Source: a virus (lineage: Duplodnaviria > Caudoviricetes). From it: 32,518 nucleotides of DNA. The notes beneath the pieces were generated by a model. The model saw only the letters and a list, made by a program, of their open reading frames with translations, was not told the origin of the DNA and made no database searches. The position numbers and the translations under genes are program-made. Shown here one piece after another: positions 7,569-16,376 of this stretch; the stretch's first letter is position 1, and every line of letters starts with the position of its first letter. Location: IMG/VR virus record IMGVR_UViG_3300044769_000077, positions 1 to 32,518 of that record; one strand, given 5' to 3'.

Positions 7569-7989
7569 GCGGCCACTCCCCAGACGCAATCATGCGCGTG
7601 CGGTGCTCGTTTGCAATTTTGATTGCGTGCGTCTCATCTTTCGCCCAAATATCCGCCTGAAGGATGTCTGGCTTATCTGGCTTACCACGATAGGCAGGCG
7701 CTTGCGTCCGTCTCCACATCCGCACAGAGCCAGCCAGATCGTAACCGCTGATTTCAAATGGCTCGCACCGCTCGGTTGTTCCGTCCTTACGCATGTCTAC
7801 AAGGTAGCGCTTGAAGCCTTGCCGCAGTTCGTTGATCACCGGATCGATCGGCCACTCAGCTACAGTCGCATCGCGCGTATCACCACCGAGCGCGTCTGCA
7901 ATCTGTTTAGCGTTAGCTTCAGACGAAAACACGCCGACCACGCGGTAGTCGGAATAGCTGCCTTGCTCAACAACCCAGACTGTTGGCAT
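7561..7989 (-). CDS. Hypothetical phage protein, 142 aa
   Basis: Protein-like composition, VWVVEQGSYSDYRVVGVFSS N-terminus, own promoter, coupled to RHH gene. Confidence 0.8.
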   Translation of the reverse strand: MPTVWVVEQGSYSDYRVVGVFSSEANAKQIADALGGDTRDATVAEWPIDPVINELRQGFKRYLVDMRKDGTTERCEPFEISGYDLAGSVRMWRRTQAPAYRGKPDKPDILQADIWAKDETHAIKIANEHRTRMIASGEWPHD

Positions 7990-8004
7990 GGGCGCAGTAT
8001 ACCA
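7990..8004 (-). promoter_or_regulatory. Extended -10 promoter for leaderless cassette-2 mRNA
   Basis: Minus strand TG-G-TATACT-gcgccc-ATG. Confidence 0.75.
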
Positions 8005-8029
8005 CAGGGTATCCCTTCACGGCTGTCGT

Positions 8030-9277
8030 ATGCAGGCTAAGGAACTGGAAGCGTTTGCGGCTGAAGTCGTGCAGTCCATGAAGATGGCCATGGCTCCTGT
8101 GGTTGCTCGCGTCGCCACGTTAGAACGCGATCTGAAGGCTGCGACTGAACGAGCCTCCGAACTTGAGGCTAATACCCGTAGAGCCGTGTCCACGAACCGC
8201 GACGACATAGGCACTGCCATTGCTGACGCGATGGCGCCGCTGCTCGAGAAGAACGCATCGCTGGAACTGCGGATCATGGAACTCGAGACGAACCCGGCGC
8301 TTGGTCCAGCCGGACCGATTGGTCAAAAGGGCGAAACAGGCGCTGGGGTTGCGTCGCTGGTTGTGACGGCTGACGGGCGTCTGTTGGCACATTTCACAGA
8401 CGGCCGGAGTGTCGACGTCGGTCCTGTGCCCCACGGGTTGCCAGGGCCGCCAGGTGAGCGCGGCGAGCCTGGGCCGTCGGGTAAGAGCGCTGTTCTCTCC
8501 ATGGAGTCAGTCGTCGCAGCCGTGCTGGAGCGGCTCCCTGCGCCGACACCAGGCGACAAGGGAGACGCAGGACCAGCCGGCAAAGATGCGCCAGCGGTCG
8601 ACGTGGACGCCCTAGTAACGCGTGTCGCGGCGCTCGTGCCTGTGCCCAAGGACGGGCGGGACGGGAAAGATGGGGCCGTAGGGCTCGCCGGCAAAGACGG
8701 CGTACCGGGAGAACGCGGGCTGCAAGGCGAGAAAGGGATCGACGGTTTGCACGGCCGCGACGGCCGCGACGGGGCTCCTGGGCTGCCGGGCATGGCGGGC
8801 GAGAAAGGCTTGGACGGCACACACGGCCGAGACGGCCTGGACGGAAAAGATATCGATCCGCAGGCTGTCAAGGCGTTTGTGGTGGCCGAGCTCGCGACCT
8901 GGCCACGGCCGAAGGATGGCGCGGACGGCCGCGATGCCCGATTGGAAGGGCTGACATTCGCCTTTGACGGCCAGCGCACCGTTACCGCCTGTTTCAAAGA
9001 TGGCACGCCGATCGAGGGCGGAACGTGGGTGTTGCCCACCACCATTTACCGCGGCGTGCATCAGGCCGGCGCGTCGTATCAGACGGGCGATAGCGTCACC
9101 TGGGATGGCCACACGTGGATCGCGATGGCAGATACCTCCGAGGCTCCAGGTGAAGGATCCAAAGCGTGGCAGTTGTCCGTACGTCGCGGCAAGACAGGGA
9201 AAGAAGGCCGCGCTGGGAAAGATGGCAAGGATGCCGTGACTCGGACGACCAACACCCCTCCGCTCTACGGTGGGTGA
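8030..9277 (+). CDS. Collagen-like virion protein (coiled coil, Gly-X-Y blocks, C-terminal carbohydrate-binding-like module)
   Basis: MQAKELEAF start; GPAGPIGQKGETG, GRDGKDG repeats; YRGVHQAGASYQTGDSVTWDGHTWIA...WQLSVRRG. Confidence 0.85.
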   Translation: MQAKELEAFAAEVVQSMKMAMAPVVARVATLERDLKAATERASELEANTRRAVSTNRDDIGTAIADAMAPLLEKNASLELRIMELETNPALGPAGPIGQKGETGAGVASLVVTADGRLLAHFTDGRSVDVGPVPHGLPGPPGERGEPGPSGKSAVLSMESVVAAVLERLPAPTPGDKGDAGPAGKDAPAVDVDALVTRVAALVPVPKDGRDGKDGAVGLAGKDGVPGERGLQGEKGIDGLHGRDGRDGAPGLPGMAGEKGLDGTHGRDGLDGKDIDPQAVKAFVVAELATWPRPKDGADGRDARLEGLTFAFDGQRTVTACFKDGTPIEGGTWVLPTTIYRGVHQAGASYQTGDSVTWDGHTWIAMADTSEAPGEGSKAWQLSVRRGKTGKEGRAGKDGKDAVTRTTNTPPLYGG

Positions 9278-9972
9278 TGCGAAATAAGTTCGAGTACGCC
9301 ACCGTGCCGCGTCTCCTGCCGACTGGCGGGACGGCGGTGATCCTTGGCTCAGGGCCATCGCTGACGCGGGCCGATGTCGACCTCACCCGAGCACACTGCG
9401 ACCTGACGATCGCTATCAACGACAGCTATGTGCTCGCGCCCGATGCGACCGCGCTCTGGGGCGCCGATGACAAGTGGATGGTGAAATGGCATCAGGGGTG
9501 TTCGGCTGCGCACCTCCACAACGGCAGGGCGTATCCGGCATTTACCGGCCAGTTTAAGTTCTGCCTGTCGCGGACCCCATACGCAGACGTGATGGTCCTG
9601 AAGCGTGGCCCGCGAATCGGGCTCTGCCTCGAACCGGACCGTGTCGCGCTAGGGTCAAACGGTGCGCATCAGTCGATCAATCTGGCGGTGCATTTCGGGG
9701 CGACGCGGATCATTCTGCTCGGTGTCGACATGAAGCCGGGGAAGGTGTTTCGCGATGGGGCCTGGCGGCCGTCGGATCACTTCGCGTGGCTCGGCCGCCA
9801 TCAGGATGATTCCAAGCCGCCGTACGAGCAGTGCTTGTCCTACATGGCGACGCTTGCGGAACCGCTGAAGAAAATCGGGGTCGAGGTTGTGAACTGTAGC
9901 CCTGATTCTGCGTTGCGCTGTTTCCCGATGCGGGCGTTGCGTGATGTCTTTCCACAGGCGGTGGCGGTATGA
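9277..9972 (+). CDS. DUF115/Maf-like (nonulosonate transferase-type Rossmann) protein
   Basis: AVILGSGPSL, IAINDSY, SNGAHQSINLAVHFGATRIILLGVDM, VVNCSPDSAL. Confidence 0.75.
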   Translation: MRNKFEYATVPRLLPTGGTAVILGSGPSLTRADVDLTRAHCDLTIAINDSYVLAPDATALWGADDKWMVKWHQGCSAAHLHNGRAYPAFTGQFKFCLSRTPYADVMVLKRGPRIGLCLEPDRVALGSNGAHQSINLAVHFGATRIILLGVDMKPGKVFRDGAWRPSDHFAWLGRHQDDSKPPYEQCLSYMATLAEPLKKIGVEVVNCSPDSALRCFPMRALRDVFPQAVAV

Positions 9973-10070
9973 ACCTGCCAGGCGGAATCGAACCACGGAA
10001 TTGCACCCTTGTCCGCATGTTCTTCGGCCGAATACTGATGCGGCTTCACCTTGTTATCGGTGCTGGCAGG
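9970..10070 (-). ncRNA. tRNA-like cloverleaf RNA (non-canonical)
   Basis: Minus strand: CCTGCCAG/CTGGCAGG 8-bp acceptor-like stem, CACC-GATAACAA-GGTG D-like arm, CCGCAT/ATGCGG arm with 19-nt interior, GGG-TGCAAT-TCC variable arm, GTGG-TTCGATT-CCGC T arm, 3' TTCA. Confidence 0.65.
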
Positions 10071-10085
10071 GGCAGCACTTTACCA
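10071..10085 (-). promoter_or_regulatory. Extended -10 promoter for the tRNA-like RNA
   Basis: Minus strand TG-G-TAAAGT-gctgcc then the first base of the acceptor stem. Confidence 0.65.
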
Positions 10086-10765
10086 TGAAGGCGCTGATCC
10101 CGTTGCCGACCGCTGCGGATCCGGCACAGGTGGAGCGCATCCGCCCCCTGCTCGAGGGTCGCGCCTGCGTGATCGTGGGATCGGCACCGCTGCGCGCGAC
10201 GACGGCCGCCATCAGTGCAGACGAACTCGCGATCGCCGTGAACGGGGGAATCTCCAGCCTTCCAGGTGCAGCGGATCTCTGGGTAGTCGGCAGCAAGAAA
10301 CAGGATCGGCCCGGCGAGTCCTATGTCCAGCCGTTGCATCGCACGATGTTGCAGCAAGCGAAGGGACGGACGGTCGGGCATCTCCTGTTGTTACGCGGGC
10401 CGACCGTGATGAGCGAAGCCTGGACGCTGGCGCGGCTCGACAAACTGGGCTGCCGTTACGGGTCGTGGTCAGTGCTGGACAAGCTGACGAAGCGTTGGAT
10501 GGAAGGTGAGATCTGCGGACGGACCGACGACAAGGCACCGTGCTCGTCAGGCATCCTCACCGCGGCTATCGCGCTCTGGTGTGGCGCAGCCTCGGTGCGG
10601 CTCGTCGGCTTTTCGTTCACGGCTGGCTATCACTATCTGCCTGGACAGTCCGCGCCGCCGTGGTGGCGAAATCATGTGGACGCAGACCGCCGTGCCATCC
10701 AGGCGTTGCGGCAGCGGTACGGCGTTCGGTTGACTGGGGATCTCGTGCAGGCGGTGGCGGCGTGA
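10085..10765 (+). CDS. GT29/sialyltransferase-like protein
   Basis: CVIVGSAP (sialylmotif L-like), CSSGILTAAIALWCGAASVRLVGF (motif S-like), YHY and downstream His. Confidence 0.65.
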   Translation: MKALIPLPTAADPAQVERIRPLLEGRACVIVGSAPLRATTAAISADELAIAVNGGISSLPGAADLWVVGSKKQDRPGESYVQPLHRTMLQQAKGRTVGHLLLLRGPTVMSEAWTLARLDKLGCRYGSWSVLDKLTKRWMEGEICGRTDDKAPCSSGILTAAIALWCGAASVRLVGFSFTAGYHYLPGQSAPPWWRNHVDADRRAIQALRQRYGVRLTGDLVQAVAA

Positions 10766-10833
10766 TGTTAGCCGTGGTGCTAGGCGTCTTAGCGATTGGG
10801 GTCGTGCTGGCCGGCGTGTATCTATCGCGATGA
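10765..10833 (+). CDS. 22-aa hydrophobic micro-ORF
   Basis: MLAVVLGVLAIGVVLAGVYLSR; TGATG and ATGA overlaps with neighbours. Confidence 0.5.
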   Translation: MLAVVLGVLAIGVVLAGVYLSR

Positions 10834-10871
10834 AAACAGTCATCTTCTTAGGTAAACGAAAGACGGCATGA
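10830..10871 (+). pseudogene. 13-codon orphan duplicate of the N-terminus of the gene at 11458
   Basis: MKTVIFLGKRKTA* versus MKTVVFLGKRKTAG. Confidence 0.8.
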
Positions 10872-10876
10872 AGACT

Positions 10877-11362
10877 CTAGTTGCGTGGACGAGGCGTGCG
10901 GTGACTCTTCCGAGTGTCCAACGGTGCCGTCAAGGCCTGTTCAATCGGCCAGTGGCGCTTCAGGCGCATCAGCAGGCACTGATGCTAGATGCCTTTGCGC
11001 CGCGCCCACTCTGTCAAGCACAGAGTGATGCCTTCATGGGTCAGCCAGCGGGTGATCGATCGGTTTTGCTGTTGTTGCTCGGCTGTAGCCCAACGCACAT
11101 TGCTCGGTTCGTAATTGCCGGCGTTGTTGATTCTGTCCAGCGAATATCCGGGCGGACACCGACCCATATCTTGAAGAAATGCGGCGTAATCATTCCAGCG
11201 TTCGCACACGCTAATGCCACGTGCGCCATAACGAGGAAACAGTTGGTGATTGTGGCGCTGGCATCTCGCCCGCATGTTCTGCCAAGTACGCCATTCGACA
11301 GTGCGCGATCCATGAACGGATTCGCCGTGCTTTCCAGGTCTGATAGATTTGTGCTTAGCCAC
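10877..11362 (-). pseudogene. HNH-type endonuclease 3 with internal amber stop at 10985-10987
   Basis: GAGAGGA SD, GTG11362; WQNMRARC, RYGARGISVCERW, SLDRINNAGNYEPSNVRWAT; after EWARRKGI* the frame continues HQCLLMRLKRHWPIEQALTAP, the expected helical tail. Confidence 0.8.
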
Positions 11363-11365
11363 GCG

Positions 11366-11441
11366 ATTTCCTCTCTTCAGGAAATAGTGTTGGTGAGAGG
11401 CCGTCGGGCGGTGAACGCGCTCGTCGGCCTCGCTTATTTTA
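11366..11441 (-). promoter_or_regulatory. HNH 3 promoter (-10 TAAAAT) and structured 5' leader with two hairpins
   Basis: TAAAAT at 11441-11436; long hairpin 11397-11431; ATTTCCT/AGGAAAT hairpin 11366-11385 covering the SD. Confidence 0.6.
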
Positions 11442-11457
11442 CCGCAGTGGTGGCGGT

Positions 11458-12060
11458 ATGAAGACGGTAGTTTTCCTTGGCAAGCGTAAAACGGCTGGCT
11501 CGCCGCTTGTCGATTGGCCCGGTGCTGAGTTATGGGGAACCACACATAGCCAGCAGAAGTACGCGAAACGCTACGGGACCGTCGACGACTGGCATGCGTG
11601 GTGGGACTTGCATCCATTTGATCCGGTGCCTGGCTATCCCGGAATCAAGAAGAAGCGACAGAAGACCTATCGCTGGTATCAGACCCTCCCAGGTCCGGAT
11701 CAGCCTGGGTATCGTCCGCTCTGGCTCGTGGAACTCGATCCGACGATTCCAGCCGGTGTGCTATTTCCGAAGCAACGGATCCTCGACGCCTTCCCACGAG
11801 AGGTACATGGGCGCTGGTTCACCTGTCAAGTGGATCTGATGATGGCTTACGCGATCCTCGAAGGCTATGAGCACATCATCCTGCACGGGCACGGAATCAG
11901 CCGCGAACTCAGTCACATGGTGGATCACTGCGGCGTGTTGGTCTGGATGACGGTCGCGCGCGAGCGCGGGATTCAGGTCACGATCCTGCCGCCGAGTTGG
12001 TATCTGGGGCCGAAGCATCCGTACGGCATTTCGCCTGGTCACTGGGGCCTCCATCCATGA
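11458..12060 (+). CDS. Hypothetical protein, DUF115/GT29-like Rossmann family
   Basis: VVFLG N-terminus, ELWGT, FTCQVDLMMAYAILEGYEHIILHG resembles the C-terminal motif of the two upstream transferase-like genes. Confidence 0.6.
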   Translation: MKTVVFLGKRKTAGSPLVDWPGAELWGTTHSQQKYAKRYGTVDDWHAWWDLHPFDPVPGYPGIKKKRQKTYRWYQTLPGPDQPGYRPLWLVELDPTIPAGVLFPKQRILDAFPREVHGRWFTCQVDLMMAYAILEGYEHIILHGHGISRELSHMVDHCGVLVWMTVARERGIQVTILPPSWYLGPKHPYGISPGHWGLHP

Positions 12061-12683
12061 CCAGCTATTTCATCCAGCGTGCCCAGCACGGCGAGGATGT
12101 GCTGCTCGTACGGCTGTTCCGCAGCATCGGGACGACGAATCGCGTGGCGGTGGACTGCGGCGCAAAGGACGGCATCTTCAAAAGCAACACCGCGCGATTC
12201 AGGCAAAAGGGCTGGCGCGTCGTGGCGTTTGATTGCGAGACGGATTCGCCACTCGTCACGCGGGCACTCATCACGGCCGAGAACATCAATGCGGTCTTGG
12301 CGCGCAAACGCGTCCCGGCGCAGTTCGATCTCTTGTCGATCGACATTGACGGGAACGATTTCTGGATCTGGGACGCGCTCACGTTTCAGCCGCGCGTTGT
12401 CATTGTCGAATACAACCCTGGCTTCGGATCGGACGTCTCGGTGACGGTGCCGTATGACCCGTCTCGGCGCTGGGATGGCACGATCTATTTTGGCGCCAGC
12501 GCGCGGGCGTTGTGGTTGCTCGGACAGCGGAAAGGCTACCGCCTGCACGCCTATACGCGATCCAACCTGATTTTTGTGCGCGCCGATCTCGTCGACGAGG
12601 ATCTCGCACCAGAGGACATGCCGATCCCCGGGCGTGCGAAGCGACCCGATCCACAGGCGCGGCCGTGGCAGGTGTACCCATGA
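12057..12683 (+). CDS. FkbM-like SAM-dependent methyltransferase
   Basis: AQHGED, VDCGAKDG...SNT, FDLLSIDIDGNDFWIW, PRVVIVEYN. Confidence 0.85.
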   Translation: MTSYFIQRAQHGEDVLLVRLFRSIGTTNRVAVDCGAKDGIFKSNTARFRQKGWRVVAFDCETDSPLVTRALITAENINAVLARKRVPAQFDLLSIDIDGNDFWIWDALTFQPRVVIVEYNPGFGSDVSVTVPYDPSRRWDGTIYFGASARALWLLGQRKGYRLHAYTRSNLIFVRADLVDEDLAPEDMPIPGRAKRPDPQARPWQVYP

Positions 12684-13690
12684 AGTCGGTCCAGGAGATC
12701 CGCAACACCGCGATCGATACGGTCCTGACGCATCTGCGATCGCTGGCGAAGAGTGGGCAGCCGATCGTCATCGGGCCATGGCTGGGCGAGATCGGCTTCG
12801 AGTTGCTGTATTGGATTCCGTTTCTGCGGTGGGCGCAGCGGTCTGTCGGGTTGACACCGGACCAGCTCACCGTCGTATCACGCGGCGGTTGTCAGTCGTG
12901 GTACTCGGACATTACGCCGCACTACATCGAACTCTATGACCACTACACGCAGGCCGAGTTACGGCACGGTAACGATCTGCGTATTCTTGAGCAAGGGTAC
13001 GCCGGTCGATTGCTCGGCTGTCGGCGTGGCTTTCGGTCGGCGAAGCAACACGCCGTGTTCACGTTCGATCGGGAGATTCTTGCCCGCGTGGCGCCGGATG
13101 CGCAGGTGTTGCACCCGTCGCTGATGTACACCCTCTTTCGCTGGTACTGGCGATCACGGGTGCCCGATCTCTATGAGCGATGCGCGATCGTGCGGCGGAT
13201 GACGGCACCAGCCGCGGCCGTCTCGCTGCCTGAGTCCTATATCGCCGTGAAGTTCTATTCCTCGCAAGCGTGCGAGGCGACGGGGGCGTACCGACGGCAC
13301 GTCAATCGCATCATGACGCTGTTGGTTGATACGGCGCCGGTTGTGGTCCTTGATAGCGGCGCGGACTATGACGAGCACGGCTCGTTTCCGATCGAGCATG
13401 CACAGGTACTCCGTCCTGTCTTGGAACCACGGACGAATCTGGCCACGCAGACCGCGATCATTGCTGGCGCGACGTCCTTTGTCGGGACGTATGGCGGCTT
13501 TGCGTATCTGGCGCCGTTACTCGGTGTCCCCACGACGGCGTTCTATACCGCGCGCAATTTCCGCGATGACCATTACGCGTTGGCGTCCCGTATCTTTGCG
13601 AAGAAGCGTGTGCGGTTCGTGGTTCGGCATCTTGAAGACGGAGCAACGGCGCTGCGTCGAGACTGGAAAGCGTGGACACATGCCGCGTAA
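12680..13690 (+). CDS. Putative GT-B-fold glycosyltransferase (GT9-like C-terminus)
   Basis: GPWLGEIGFELLYWIP; NLATQTAIIAGATSFVGTYGGFAYLAPLLGVPT. Confidence 0.65.
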   Translation: MKSVQEIRNTAIDTVLTHLRSLAKSGQPIVIGPWLGEIGFELLYWIPFLRWAQRSVGLTPDQLTVVSRGGCQSWYSDITPHYIELYDHYTQAELRHGNDLRILEQGYAGRLLGCRRGFRSAKQHAVFTFDREILARVAPDAQVLHPSLMYTLFRWYWRSRVPDLYERCAIVRRMTAPAAAVSLPESYIAVKFYSSQACEATGAYRRHVNRIMTLLVDTAPVVVLDSGADYDEHGSFPIEHAQVLRPVLEPRTNLATQTAIIAGATSFVGTYGGFAYLAPLLGVPTTAFYTARNFRDDHYALASRIFAKKRVRFVVRHLEDGATALRRDWKAWTHAA

Positions 13691-13799
13691 CTGCCTGATG
13701 CCACCGGATCGCGACTTCTGGCTGTGGCTGTTGCATCACGAGAATAGTGATGCGGTTGAACGTGTCATCGCTCGTATGGTGTTGCTGGTGGCGCGGTGA
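13680..13799 (+). CDS. 39-aa micro-ORF
   Basis: MPRNCLMPPDRDFWLWLLHHENSDAVERVIARMVLLVAR; overlaps both neighbours. Confidence 0.45.
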   Translation: MPRNCLMPPDRDFWLWLLHHENSDAVERVIARMVLLVAR

Positions 13800-14374
13800 T
13801 GCGTCCTGACCTCTACGCGCCAGGTTCGGCGTATCACCAGCAGCGTCGGTGGACGCAGAAGCACGCTGTTCGCTGCTTGGAGTCAGCTATCGAGTTGATG
13901 GGGAAGCCGGGGAGCCTCCTCGATGTGGGCTGCGCGGAAGGCGGCCTCGTGCTCTGGGCGTCAGGGCAAGGGATCGAGGCGATGGGGATCGATCTCGCCA
14001 CGCCATCCGATCTGTCTCTGGTGCGCGCAGATCTGCAGAACCCCGTTGATCTGCAGCGTATGTTTGACTGGGTACTGTGCTGGGAAGTCGCCGAACATCT
14101 GCCGGAGTCAGCCGCAGACACGCTCTGCCAGACGTTGGCTCGGCACGTCGCGCCAGCGGGGCGGCTACTGTTTACGGCGGCGCCACCGGGACAGCGCGGG
14201 CCGGGCCACATTAATCTGCAGCCAGTCGAGTACTGGCTCGAGAAGCTCTACGCCGCTGGCGGGCTGGTCTGTGCGGAGAAGCCATCGATCGCGCTTCGGC
14301 GTGAGTGGTTGAAGGTTGCGCCTAAGTGTCCCTGGTACGGAAAGAACGCGATCGTAGCCTGGAGGGTCGCGTGA
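13796..14374 (+). CDS. Class I SAM-dependent methyltransferase
   Basis: LLDVGCAEG, GIDL, FDWVLCWEVAEHL, GQRGPGHIN. Confidence 0.9.
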   Translation: MMRPDLYAPGSAYHQQRRWTQKHAVRCLESAIELMGKPGSLLDVGCAEGGLVLWASGQGIEAMGIDLATPSDLSLVRADLQNPVDLQRMFDWVLCWEVAEHLPESAADTLCQTLARHVAPAGRLLFTAAPPGQRGPGHINLQPVEYWLEKLYAAGGLVCAEKPSIALRREWLKVAPKCPWYGKNAIVAWRVA

Positions 14375-14604
14375 TCCGAGTCGCTGGCTACACGTCTAAC
14401 AACGACGATGACCCAATCGTGTGGGAAGTCTATGGGCAACGGTTGGAGGAAGGCGAGCTGCGTTTCAGGCATGTCGTGATGCGAGCGTCAGATAGGACGC
14501 GGTTGGTCAATGCCTTCGGAGAGCCATGGTTGGAATGTGAACAGGCTCGGCAATTGCTGAAGATACGTGCCTGGGAACAGCACTGTAGCGGTGGAGTGAA
14601 TTGA
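14371..14604 (+). CDS. Hypothetical protein, 77 aa
   Basis: GGAGG SD, GTGA overlap at start, TTGA overlap at end. Confidence 0.55.
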   Translation: MIRVAGYTSNNDDDPIVWEVYGQRLEEGELRFRHVVMRASDRTRLVNAFGEPWLECEQARQLLKIRAWEQHCSGGVN

Positions 14605-15326
14605 AACTCCTCCTAACGATCCGCACGGCGAACCGCGCACCGAAGACGAACTATCTCGGGGTGACAGTGTTAGGCCTGTTAGGACAAGGCGTGGCGGCTG
14701 ATTCAATTCATATTGTCGCCACCGACCCTGCTGTGGGTTGGGCGCATCAGGAGGTGCGTTACCCCGTGTGGCTTCATCAGCCGGACCTCCACCGCCGACC
14801 TAACGAGAACGGTATTGCTGCCATTGATCTACTCGGTCTCTTTCCAGCCGACTGGATCATCCTCAGCGAAGATGATCTGGAATGGTGCGCGGATCCTATT
14901 GGCAGCATGTCGCGCTGGCTCGAAGCGCACGCGACTCCTGACCGCGTGATGTATCGCTTCTTTGCCTTTGATCGCCTGACACCTGTCAGCGCGCACGCGG
15001 CAACCGCGCCACTGCGTGAACAGAAAGGTTCGCAGGCTGTGGCGTTGCGTGCGGATGACGCGCGGCGGTTTGCCGCCTGGGCGAAGGCCCATCCTCTCGA
15101 CTGGCGGCCGAAAGGCGCGCCCTTTCAGCATCGGCCACATGACGGCTTTGACAAGTTGCTCGGCTACTGGGCGCTACAGGACAACCCGAACATGACGACG
15201 GGACTTGTCTCGCGTCCGTTCTTCGTACGACATCTCGGTACCGACAGCAGCCTTCACTCTCACGGGGTCCGCATGGATCGCGAGTTTGCCGGATCGACTT
15301 GGTCCTATGGTGAGGTGCCCGTATGA
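14601..15326 (+). CDS. Putative GT-A-fold glycosyltransferase
   Basis: DWIILSEDD acidic motif, GSQAVAL, FDKLL, FVRHLG; GGTGGAG SD with TTG start. Confidence 0.7.
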   Translation: MKLLLTIRTANRAPKTNYLGVTVLGLLGQGVAADSIHIVATDPAVGWAHQEVRYPVWLHQPDLHRRPNENGIAAIDLLGLFPADWIILSEDDLEWCADPIGSMSRWLEAHATPDRVMYRFFAFDRLTPVSAHAATAPLREQKGSQAVALRADDARRFAAWAKAHPLDWRPKGAPFQHRPHDGFDKLLGYWALQDNPNMTTGLVSRPFFVRHLGTDSSLHSHGVRMDREFAGSTWSYGEVPV

Positions 15327-15631
15327 GTACCTTCACCACGTTGCAAATGGCGAAGGACCAAGCGGGCATCCCGCAAGCGGATACCTCTGCCGATGAATGG
15401 GTGCAGATGGTCCTGGATCAGGCTGAAGCGATGGTCCTGTCGTATCTGAAAACAGACGCGCCGGATCCGTCGCCGCTCGTGACTGGGGCGATGTATTTGC
15501 AATTTGCGGAACTCTGGCGCTTCCGTGGGGATGACGTCGAAGGGCAACTCCCAAAGGCGAGCATGCCTGGGGCGCTCTCGCCCGCGATCGAGCGGATGTT
15601 GTATCGGCTGCGCGATCCGGAGCTTGCATGA
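15323..15631 (+). CDS. Head-tail connector (gp6-like)
   Basis: TLQMAKDQ, AEAMVLSYL, LWRFRGDD, MLYRLRDP; position. Confidence 0.85.
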   Translation: MSTFTTLQMAKDQAGIPQADTSADEWVQMVLDQAEAMVLSYLKTDAPDPSPLVTGAMYLQFAELWRFRGDDVEGQLPKASMPGALSPAIERMLYRLRDPELA

Positions 15632-15957
15632 TTGCGTCTGGACGTCGGCGGCATCTCGTGACGTTGCAAACCGTGGCCACTGCGGCTGACAACGACGCCA
15701 GCTTCACGGAAACGCCGTCAACGTTTGCGGTCGCGCGCATGGCGATCGAGCCAGCCACGGCGCGGACGCTTGAACGCGCGGGTATGGGGACGCTCATTGC
15801 GCAGGCGTCACTGGTGCTGACGAGTCCGTATATCTCAGGCGTGACGACACACATGCGGGCGCTGTTCGGATCGCGGGTGCTCTATATCCTCGGCGTAGCC
15901 AATCCGAACGAAGCGAACCGCGAATTGATCTTGGCGTGTTCTGAGGTGGTCGCATGA
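15628..15957 (+). CDS. Head closure protein (SPP1 gp16-like)
   Basis: GRRRHLVTLQ, VTTHMR, LILACSE. Confidence 0.85.
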   Translation: MIASGRRRHLVTLQTVATAADNDASFTETPSTFAVARMAIEPATARTLERAGMGTLIAQASLVLTSPYISGVTTHMRALFGSRVLYILGVANPNEANRELILACSEVVA

Positions 15958-16376
15958 GCGCCTCGATTCGATGGAACGGATTGGACGAACTACGTGAGGA
16001 GCTCAGGAACCTTCCGGAGGTGTTGGCCCAAGAGGCGAGCGGCATCGTCCAACGTGCGGCCGGTGATGCCGCCCAAGAGATCCGCGCAGGCTATCAGGAC
16101 CATCGGCGCACAGGAAAACTCGCGGCGGGCGTCAAGGTGGAGTCCAAAGGGATCGGGCCATTCGGGACGGCCTTGGTTGTGAAGTCGACCGCCAAACATG
16201 CGGCGCTGTTCGAGATCGGAACACAGGCTCGGCATACCAACATCGGGGCGAATCGCGGATCCATGCCGCCCGGAAAGATATTTGTTCCGGTCGTTGTGAG
16301 AAAGCGCCGAGCGATGTACGAGCGCCTGAAGGAGTTGCTCGTGCGGCACGGGGCGAAGGTCAACGGCAATGCCTGA
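15954..16376 (+). CDS. HK97 gp10-like tail completion protein
   Basis: GLDELREEL, RTGKLA, HAALFEIGT, MPP..IFVP. Confidence 0.85.
   Translation: MSASIRWNGLDELREELRNLPEVLAQEASGIVQRAAGDAAQEIRAGYQDHRRTGKLAAGVKVESKGIGPFGTALVVKSTAKHAALFEIGTQARHTNIGANRGSMPPGKIFVPVVVRKRRAMYERLKELLVRHGAKVNGNA

Follow-up and report, generated by a model that had tools for sequence, protein, structure and literature searches.

A stranded gene start beside an HNH nuclease cassette in a coupled phage operon, and its possible origin in homing

A cassette carrying an HNH-family nuclease gene on the opposite strand stands exactly at the start of a conserved gene (gene C) in the operon of a tailed phage; to its left lies a stranded copy of the first 13 codons of that gene, and to its right the complete gene begins anew with a 5' end that differs mostly at silent sites. 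We propose, with a probability of roughly 55%, that the arrangement arose by homing started by the nuclease, with one-sided homology and co-conversion of the neighbouring gene end, and that its product survived via a hand-over of ribosomes along overlapping frames.

The window, by which we mean the whole 32.5-kb stretch of DNA that was analysed, leads from terminase, capsid and portal genes through a glycosyl-/methyltransferase-like block to connector and tail genes, and the metagenome runs in which it is contained come from sediment and groundwater. Ten ORFs, from 7988 to 13690, are linked by 4-nt start/stop overlaps into one chain, in which we name the conserved genes A (9274), B (10085), C (11458), D and E. 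Gene C, with 81 homologues, has a fold weakly similar to CstII-type sialyltransferases and thiamine pyrophosphokinases, and no match to it was found among 50,697 cultured phage records. Between 7988 and 14374 a collagen-like gene and the transferase-like block lie inside the head-tail operon, where they possibly play a role in virion glycosylation. The large terminase (549-2152) consists of two ORFs with an ATGA overlap at 1493-1496, a junction falling within the region that PHROG 2699 covers as a single piece, and further small inserts, absent in most relatives and each ending in a -4 overlap, are seen at 14371-14604 and 13680-13799. The features on which the argument depends are given below, with L001 as the insert-free sister phage.

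9970 to 10070, minus strand: tRNA-like RNA with a predicted 8-bp acceptor, a 4-bp T stem and an enlarged anticodon loop
10085 to 10765, plus strand: gene B, its protein just 68% identical to the L001 allele
10753 to 10867, no strand: island common to L001 (1 mismatch in 115 nt), comprising the end of gene B, a small ORF and the orphan start
10762 to 10833, plus strand: hydrophobic ORF of 23 codons, present in L001 too and -4 coupled on both sides
10830 to 10871, plus strand: orphan 13-codon start of gene C in the L001-type spelling, with a 4-nt overlap with both the previous and the next ORF
10868 to 11457, no strand: cassette of 590 nt, missing in L001, with GC of about 0.56 vs 0.60-0.69 in most flanking windows
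10868 to 10882, plus strand: older start relic MKTLV, identical to the 11458 start in 13/15 nt and to the orphan in 9/15
10868 to 11461, plus strand: bridge ORF of 197 codons, in the register that matches the HNH antisense; predicted ribosome relay
10877 to 11362, minus strand: HNH-family nuclease gene (PHROG 3377/374), 161 codons with an in-frame TAG at codon 126 (10985-10987)
11363 to 11441, minus strand: HNH leader with a TAAAAT box (11441-11436) and predicted hairpins
11440 to 11458, plus strand: predicted hairpin on the operon mRNA, covering a GGTGG motif and the A of the gene C ATG
11458 to 11619, plus strand: divergent 5' patch of gene C, codons 1-54, differing from L001 in 38/162 nt
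11458 to 12060, plus strand: gene C, intact, 200 aa

The left copy (10830-10871) reads MKTVIFLGKRKTA and a stop, and the start at 11458 reads MKTVVFLGKRKTAG. The two share 12 of 13 residues and 27 of 39 nt, and 10 of the 13 codons differ, 9 of them synonymously. A preliminary description, made from this DNA alone, had reported the duplication, and also the likeness of the bridge ORF start to the 11458 start, and both stand letter for letter. It is not due to chance, because the next-best ungapped match to the 13-residue start in the six frames of the whole window reaches merely 6/13. The right edge of the cassette resembles the end of an upstream gene, and the bridge ORF that spans the cassette has zero family matches and an ESM Atlas model with pLDDT of 0.33, which means no confident fold. 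Both alleles occur in the same samples, so that one may think of a chimeric assembly of two co-occurring phages; two further contigs (L010 and L028), however, are 100% identical to the window over the region and have the same layout, and unitigs span every junction in several runs, which leaves this explanation hardly any credit. In a haplotype check of raw-run contigs, which covered 4 runs (X13, X15, X17 and X20) out of the 24 listed, contigs from X13 and X20 cross the left junction and the HNH stop, and contigs from X15, X17 and X20 the right junction, without any letter changed.

Over 11458-16057 the sister L001 and the window agree at 99.2% identity. L001 lacks the duplication, and its gene C start has the spelling of the orphan (38/39 nt, vs 28/39 nt for the 11458 start), which answers the check proposed in the preliminary description. 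Downstream of 11458, 38 of the 39 mismatches fall within codons 2-54 and are followed by 1 in 4,438 nt; 31 codons of the patch differ, 25 of them silently, with 6 residue changes, and the differences peak at codons 14-32 (16/19). Thus the foreign piece is the HNH together with 54 codons of gene C. Upstream of the island the two phages diverge in gene B as listed, and a 113-nt insert at 9973 is absent in L001. In run X17 a contig joins 10868 to 11554 with L001 letters between, and window-form contigs are found there as well, so that both alleles are present in it; the insert-free junction at 9973 was found in 3 of the 4 runs examined. L001 was also considered as a simple deletion product and this was ruled out, as its codons 14-54 differ from those of the window.

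The silent divergence between window and L001 (25/42 degenerate codons) is close to that of L001 with L024 (24/41) and with L004 (24/40) among the 14 alleles compared, pairs that involve no HNH. Since it lies within the range of natural allele pairs, we read the window patch, the one with the lowest GC3 (0.60) and thus the most AT3-rich of the 14, as most likely a natural allele long linked to the HNH and not as a fresh recoding. The earlier proposal that the element restored the gene with its own recoded 5' end therefore keeps its first half, the 5' end being foreign, but has to be amended in length (54 codons, not 13) and in origin (a linked allele with 25/42). It may be argued instead that the start was duplicated within this genome and the downstream copy recoded in place, as an escape from the nuclease or a guard against deletion between the repeats; silent changes do make up 25 of the 31, and the restart of the terminase carrier L124, described below, has 7 silent changes and all 10/10 residues preserved, which fits local silent-site selection. 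We consider it very unlikely, however: with the orphan 98-99% identical to L001 and the patch close to saturated, the divergence predates the duplication event; moreover, six residues differ, three of them in common with P0003, the closest other homologue. Recoding driven by a promoter, with the -35 of the HNH within codons 2-11, was rejected as well and remains a weak lead: a sigma-70 scan gave 0 sites, and the GTA-ATT spelling occurs too in the insert-free L021 and L027. The donor of the patch was not found in viral contigs (exact patterns), metagenome contigs or GTDB genomes (0/48 candidates). At 11708-11799, at a distance from the HNH, one contig of run X15 diverges in a second patch, which has two residue changes also present in P0003.

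A profile search assigns the nuclease to PHROG 3377 with E of 8e-39, a Pfam search gave no match, and tblastn of the window detected just this one HNH-like gene. Its core (D76-R77, Y84, N88, N100) is intact. D-R, the loop Tyr and the two Asn are conserved among 119 homologues, 44 of which are short forms like that of the window, with Arg at the site of the usual catalytic His in 119/119 and Tyr84 likewise in 119/119, so that the family is not of the canonical His type (I-HmuI, HNH_3). The structure model (pLDDT 92) has its best match in PacI (PDB 3m7k/3ldy), at a modest Z of 6.1 over 92 residues with rmsd of 4.4; Foldseek gave zero matches with E < 0.001, and a sequence search of solved structures no match. 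On this modelling the nuclease would be PacI-like, with the loop Tyr as a candidate general base. With the TAG at codon 126 the protein loses a conserved motif at its C-terminal end; this stop is common to the window, L010, L028 and contigs of X13 and X20, none of which thus has an intact frame, while internal stops within the matched part occur in 2/80 viral relatives; the truncated protein is probably inactive. A reassigned genetic code was considered for this TAG and rejected: 0/18 window genes end in TAG, all are open in code 11, and the tRNA-like RNA of the window shows no CUA loop. A predicted hairpin in the leader (z -3.7, minus strand) covers the purine-rich stretch before the GTG.

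With a homing endonuclease the gene shares a nuclease domain of the His-Me finger type, absence at the same locus in L001 and in run X17, and a converted tract adjoining the cassette, of which nuclease action would be the presumed cause; with a broken frame and a putative cleavage activity, we do not class it as an active one. A self-splicing intron finds no place here, as gene C is complete downstream without splicing, and the 5 weak Rfam matches in 9000-13000 include no intron family, those at 11355-11453 being under the gathering threshold.

The layout is repeated elsewhere in the same nuclease family, which comprises an estimated 7,300 viral stretches or so and 1,120 cultured records. At 3 of 80 viral loci, belonging to two phages, an intact HNH is fused to the first 9-11 codons of the large terminase, and the terminase begins again further down; the identity of these HNHs to that of the window is 42-45%. 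The comparison was made on 80 terL loci, 60 of them non-redundant, namely 3 carriers and 57 free. Carrier L137 (HNH at 720-1211) has the free partner L174, which agrees with its left copy in 30/33 nt, with its restart in 21/33, and with the left copy together with upstream DNA in 84/90 nt; for carrier L124 (HNH at 728-1204) and its free partner L127 the figures are 28/30 nt for the left copy and 23/30 for the restart. Codons 2-20 differ in 12/19 vs 36/220 later in the first pair (P 2e-5) and in 13/19 vs 86/220 in the second (P 0.016). The restarts are AT3-rich (0.56-0.61 vs a free median of 0.79); at L082 the two terminase start copies agree in 10/10 residues although 7 codons are changed silently, and in the third carrier, L159, no left copy was detectable. 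Duplicated starts are rare in the family: just 3/80 loci have them, one further hit looked spurious, and of the 1,120 cultured records 0/5 hits examined did. In Gordonia phage CherryTomatoes (PP978796; L206), near gene 177, an antisense HNH of the same family lies near the terminase and is spanned by a 229-codon open frame ending in ATGA, which may be due to chance.

The repeated layout favours the earlier view that the element entered after codon 13 of the gene, but the older relic at the left cassette edge suggests a longer history, in which the HNH would first have landed near codon 5 beside an 11458-type allele with duplication of the junction, and a later event would have given rise to the orphan of 13 codons.

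How such an insert may be tolerated is suggested by other junctions, which we walked in the window and in 23 of 35 gene C loci, the remainder being copies or overlaps. All 14 of the gaps longer than 60 nt at junctions that are elsewhere -4 overlapped are filled by unbroken -4 chains, 7 of them running over opposite-strand cargo, and some of the fillers are genuine plus-strand genes. The E-F gap of 105 nt in the window and L001, where relatives have a -14 junction, lacks -4 coupling on the left side, and the D-E junction of L026 was ambiguous. The seven opposite-strand cargos are the window HNH, a tRNA-Arg of L024, the tRNA-like RNA of the window and four ORFs; in 5 of the 6 non-HNH ones a TAnnnT box ends 6-7 nt before the first base (background 1.1%), the sixth having CATAAT, and a comparable box stands near the insert-free junction in 1/24. 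All seven frames would be open by chance with 1e-8, as given by a crude post hoc shuffle and driven by L024 and L003; for the window bridge P is about 0.05, and 21/80 family HNHs have an open antisense frame. Codon log-odds failed to separate the strands, the true HNH scoring negative.

Among these cargos, the tRNA-Arg(ACG) of L024 (2405-2480, minus strand) lies antisense to the operon beneath a plus-strand frame of 132 codons with coupling on either end. The minus-strand ORFs of L003 (3972), L005 (3983), L008 (2415) and L020 (488) have their ATG 6-7 nt after the TAnnnT box and are predicted to be read from leaderless transcripts; no homologues were found for those of L005 and L003, nor for any of them in PHROGs, and because homologues are missing four of the seven cargos are recognised by a -10 box and an ORF alone.

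A further opposite-strand cargo of the window, the tRNA-like RNA, sits in the 113-nt insert under a bridge ORF of 39 codons (9969-10088), has a folding z of -1.9 and an extended -10 box 6 nt upstream. Neither ARAGORN nor Rfam matches at 9970-10070, and its anticodon loop of 21 nt with an inner hairpin is not the 7-nt loop of an 8/4 allo-tRNA, the 8/4 tRNAs having been described in PMC5389517. Its exact 20-nt pattern was found in the identical contig alone.

Inserts without any nuclease bring in an explanation that dispenses with cleavage, in which the HNH is a passenger moved in the same direction by ordinary recombination that dragged in the first codons of the downstream gene. Three such inserts (L008, 2221-2436, with 6/7 residues; L005, 4845-4955; L020, 363-703) also start with a copy of the start of the next gene, and that of L020 repeats the entire junction between the end of gene B and the start of gene C. 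When 4 hand-picked pairs of close relatives whose non-nuclease inserts differ are compared, the gene that follows shows differences in 8/8 codons at codons 2-3 vs 43/228 later, and gene C has other divergent patches, as in X15. We find it rather unlikely all the same: the tracts there are of a few codons and here of 54, and the layout recurs with the same nuclease family at another, unrelated gene that is essential, where the surplus of differences is limited to codons 2-20.

The direction of transfer can also be reversed, the 11458 gene, the HNH, gene B and the tRNA-like insert being native, the 115-nt patch imported from an L001-type phage, and L001 a second recombinant that lost the HNH. 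This asks for no more events than our own reading; it accounts for the cassette relic of the 11458 type and for the GC3 of window gene B (0.76), which fits its neighbours A and D (0.75 and 0.78) better than that of the L001 gene B (0.69) does, and P0003 is nearer to the window patch (50/54 vs 48/54 for L001), agreeing with it at 3/6 of the changed residues and with L001 at 1. Most relatives, on the other hand, are closer to the L001 patch (10 of 12 non-redundant ones, with 2 ties), and at the terminase the left copy and the DNA upstream follow the free sister, as transfer towards an L001-type recipient predicts, so we hold the reversed course to be quite improbable.

We therefore return to homing started by the nuclease, whose steps may be imagined as follows. 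The HNH would once have cut a sister-type allele near the start of gene C, and repair of the break would have brought in a copy of the cassette along with the 5' allele linked to it. On the right the exchange would have ended in a crossover by homology after codon 54; the left end would have been joined at codons 12-13, where a handful of bases (CGGC) match, and the start of the recipient would thereby have been left stranded; a microhomology join is suggested because the junction in this family is hypervariable and without long homology. Such a join creates the ATGA overlap and, with the antisense frame of the HNH free of stops, the product may have survived because ribosomes would pass over the orphan, the bridge and the restarted gene without a gap. 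The linked allele, different mostly at silent sites, would be immune to the nuclease, which would later have acquired its stop codon. Several points weigh against this reading: the motif is lost to the TAG, the silent divergence only equals that of HNH-free pairs, P0003 sides more with the window patch, gene B and the 113-nt insert differ too and the orphan island could have arrived last, the X15 patch is away from the HNH, the bridge taken alone is weak, and duplicated starts are rare.

More broadly, and tentatively, as we would rather bet against it, one could suggest that some members of this widespread PacI-like family target coupled genes by homing within their first 10-20 codons, where the host start is taken over or left stranded and an immune, silently recoded copy lets the gene begin again; in operons that are -4 coupled throughout, every cargo, down to an antisense tRNA, would need a junk frame serving solely to pass ribosomes on. 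The locus is a natural snapshot of how a free-standing nuclease can come to lie inside a gene without intron, intein or gene splitting. The target site would lie in this region, as the preliminary description had supposed, and since both alleles are known, the place of cutting can be narrowed down to about 40 codons in gene C and about 10 in the terminase pair; L137 with L174 and L124 with L127 are the best pairs for an assay, their nuclease being intact. Relay frames hint at a simple rule that would decide which inserts can be borne by a phage operon with tight coupling. They are also a trap for annotation: the 197-codon bridge is recorded as a protein, though the real gene occupies the opposite strand.

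No phage precedent was found for a stranded start with a silently divergent restart, or for antisense relay frames, in the mostly open-access literature searched. Co-conversion by free-standing phage endonucleases is established (PMC2988022), and the window resembles the seg/mob genes of T4 in having the nuclease outside an intron, a sister phage without it and a converted tract in the neighbouring gene; a predicted hairpin over the ribosome-binding region and the antisense placement, as in segD, are further features shared with T4 homing genes (PMC2988022). The seg/mob genes, however, lie between genes and cleave at distances of hundreds to thousands of bases, the accessible parts of that account describing no stranded start or antisense relay (PMC2988022), and the active site of the window nuclease, whose activity is putative, is not of the His type. 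In Tremella mitochondria (PMC7315562) an endonuclease-linked divergent copy likewise replaces a piece of a gene and strands the original, and partial duplicates of atp6 and cob adjoin endonuclease genes (PMC6279837); these cases differ in being fungal, mitochondrial and intron-derived, with long fragments and, as far as the sources go, no translational coupling. PacI, which has no catalytic His, its base being a loop Tyr (PMC5714182, PMC3384342, PMC4081073), is a bacterial restriction enzyme that appears to share this Tyr with the phage family, on a comparison by fold match alone. Mycobacterial MIRUs (PMC12548453) are similar in that they insert at a start codon with a -4 coupled ORF and leave the downstream gene translated, which is also seen in the position and overlap of our cassette, but they are short repeated units, whereas the phage cargos are unrelated, single-copy, 64-692 nt long and often on the opposite strand, the cassette occurring once in the window and the inserts of relatives differing mutually. 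The phages of Barth et al. 2023 (PMC10448857), HEG-rich ones in which atypical HNH domains escape Pfam, differ in the AP2 domain that the window HNH lacks, and they come close to our case in their patchy and often broken nuclease genes, situated at recombination boundaries near terminase and structural genes.
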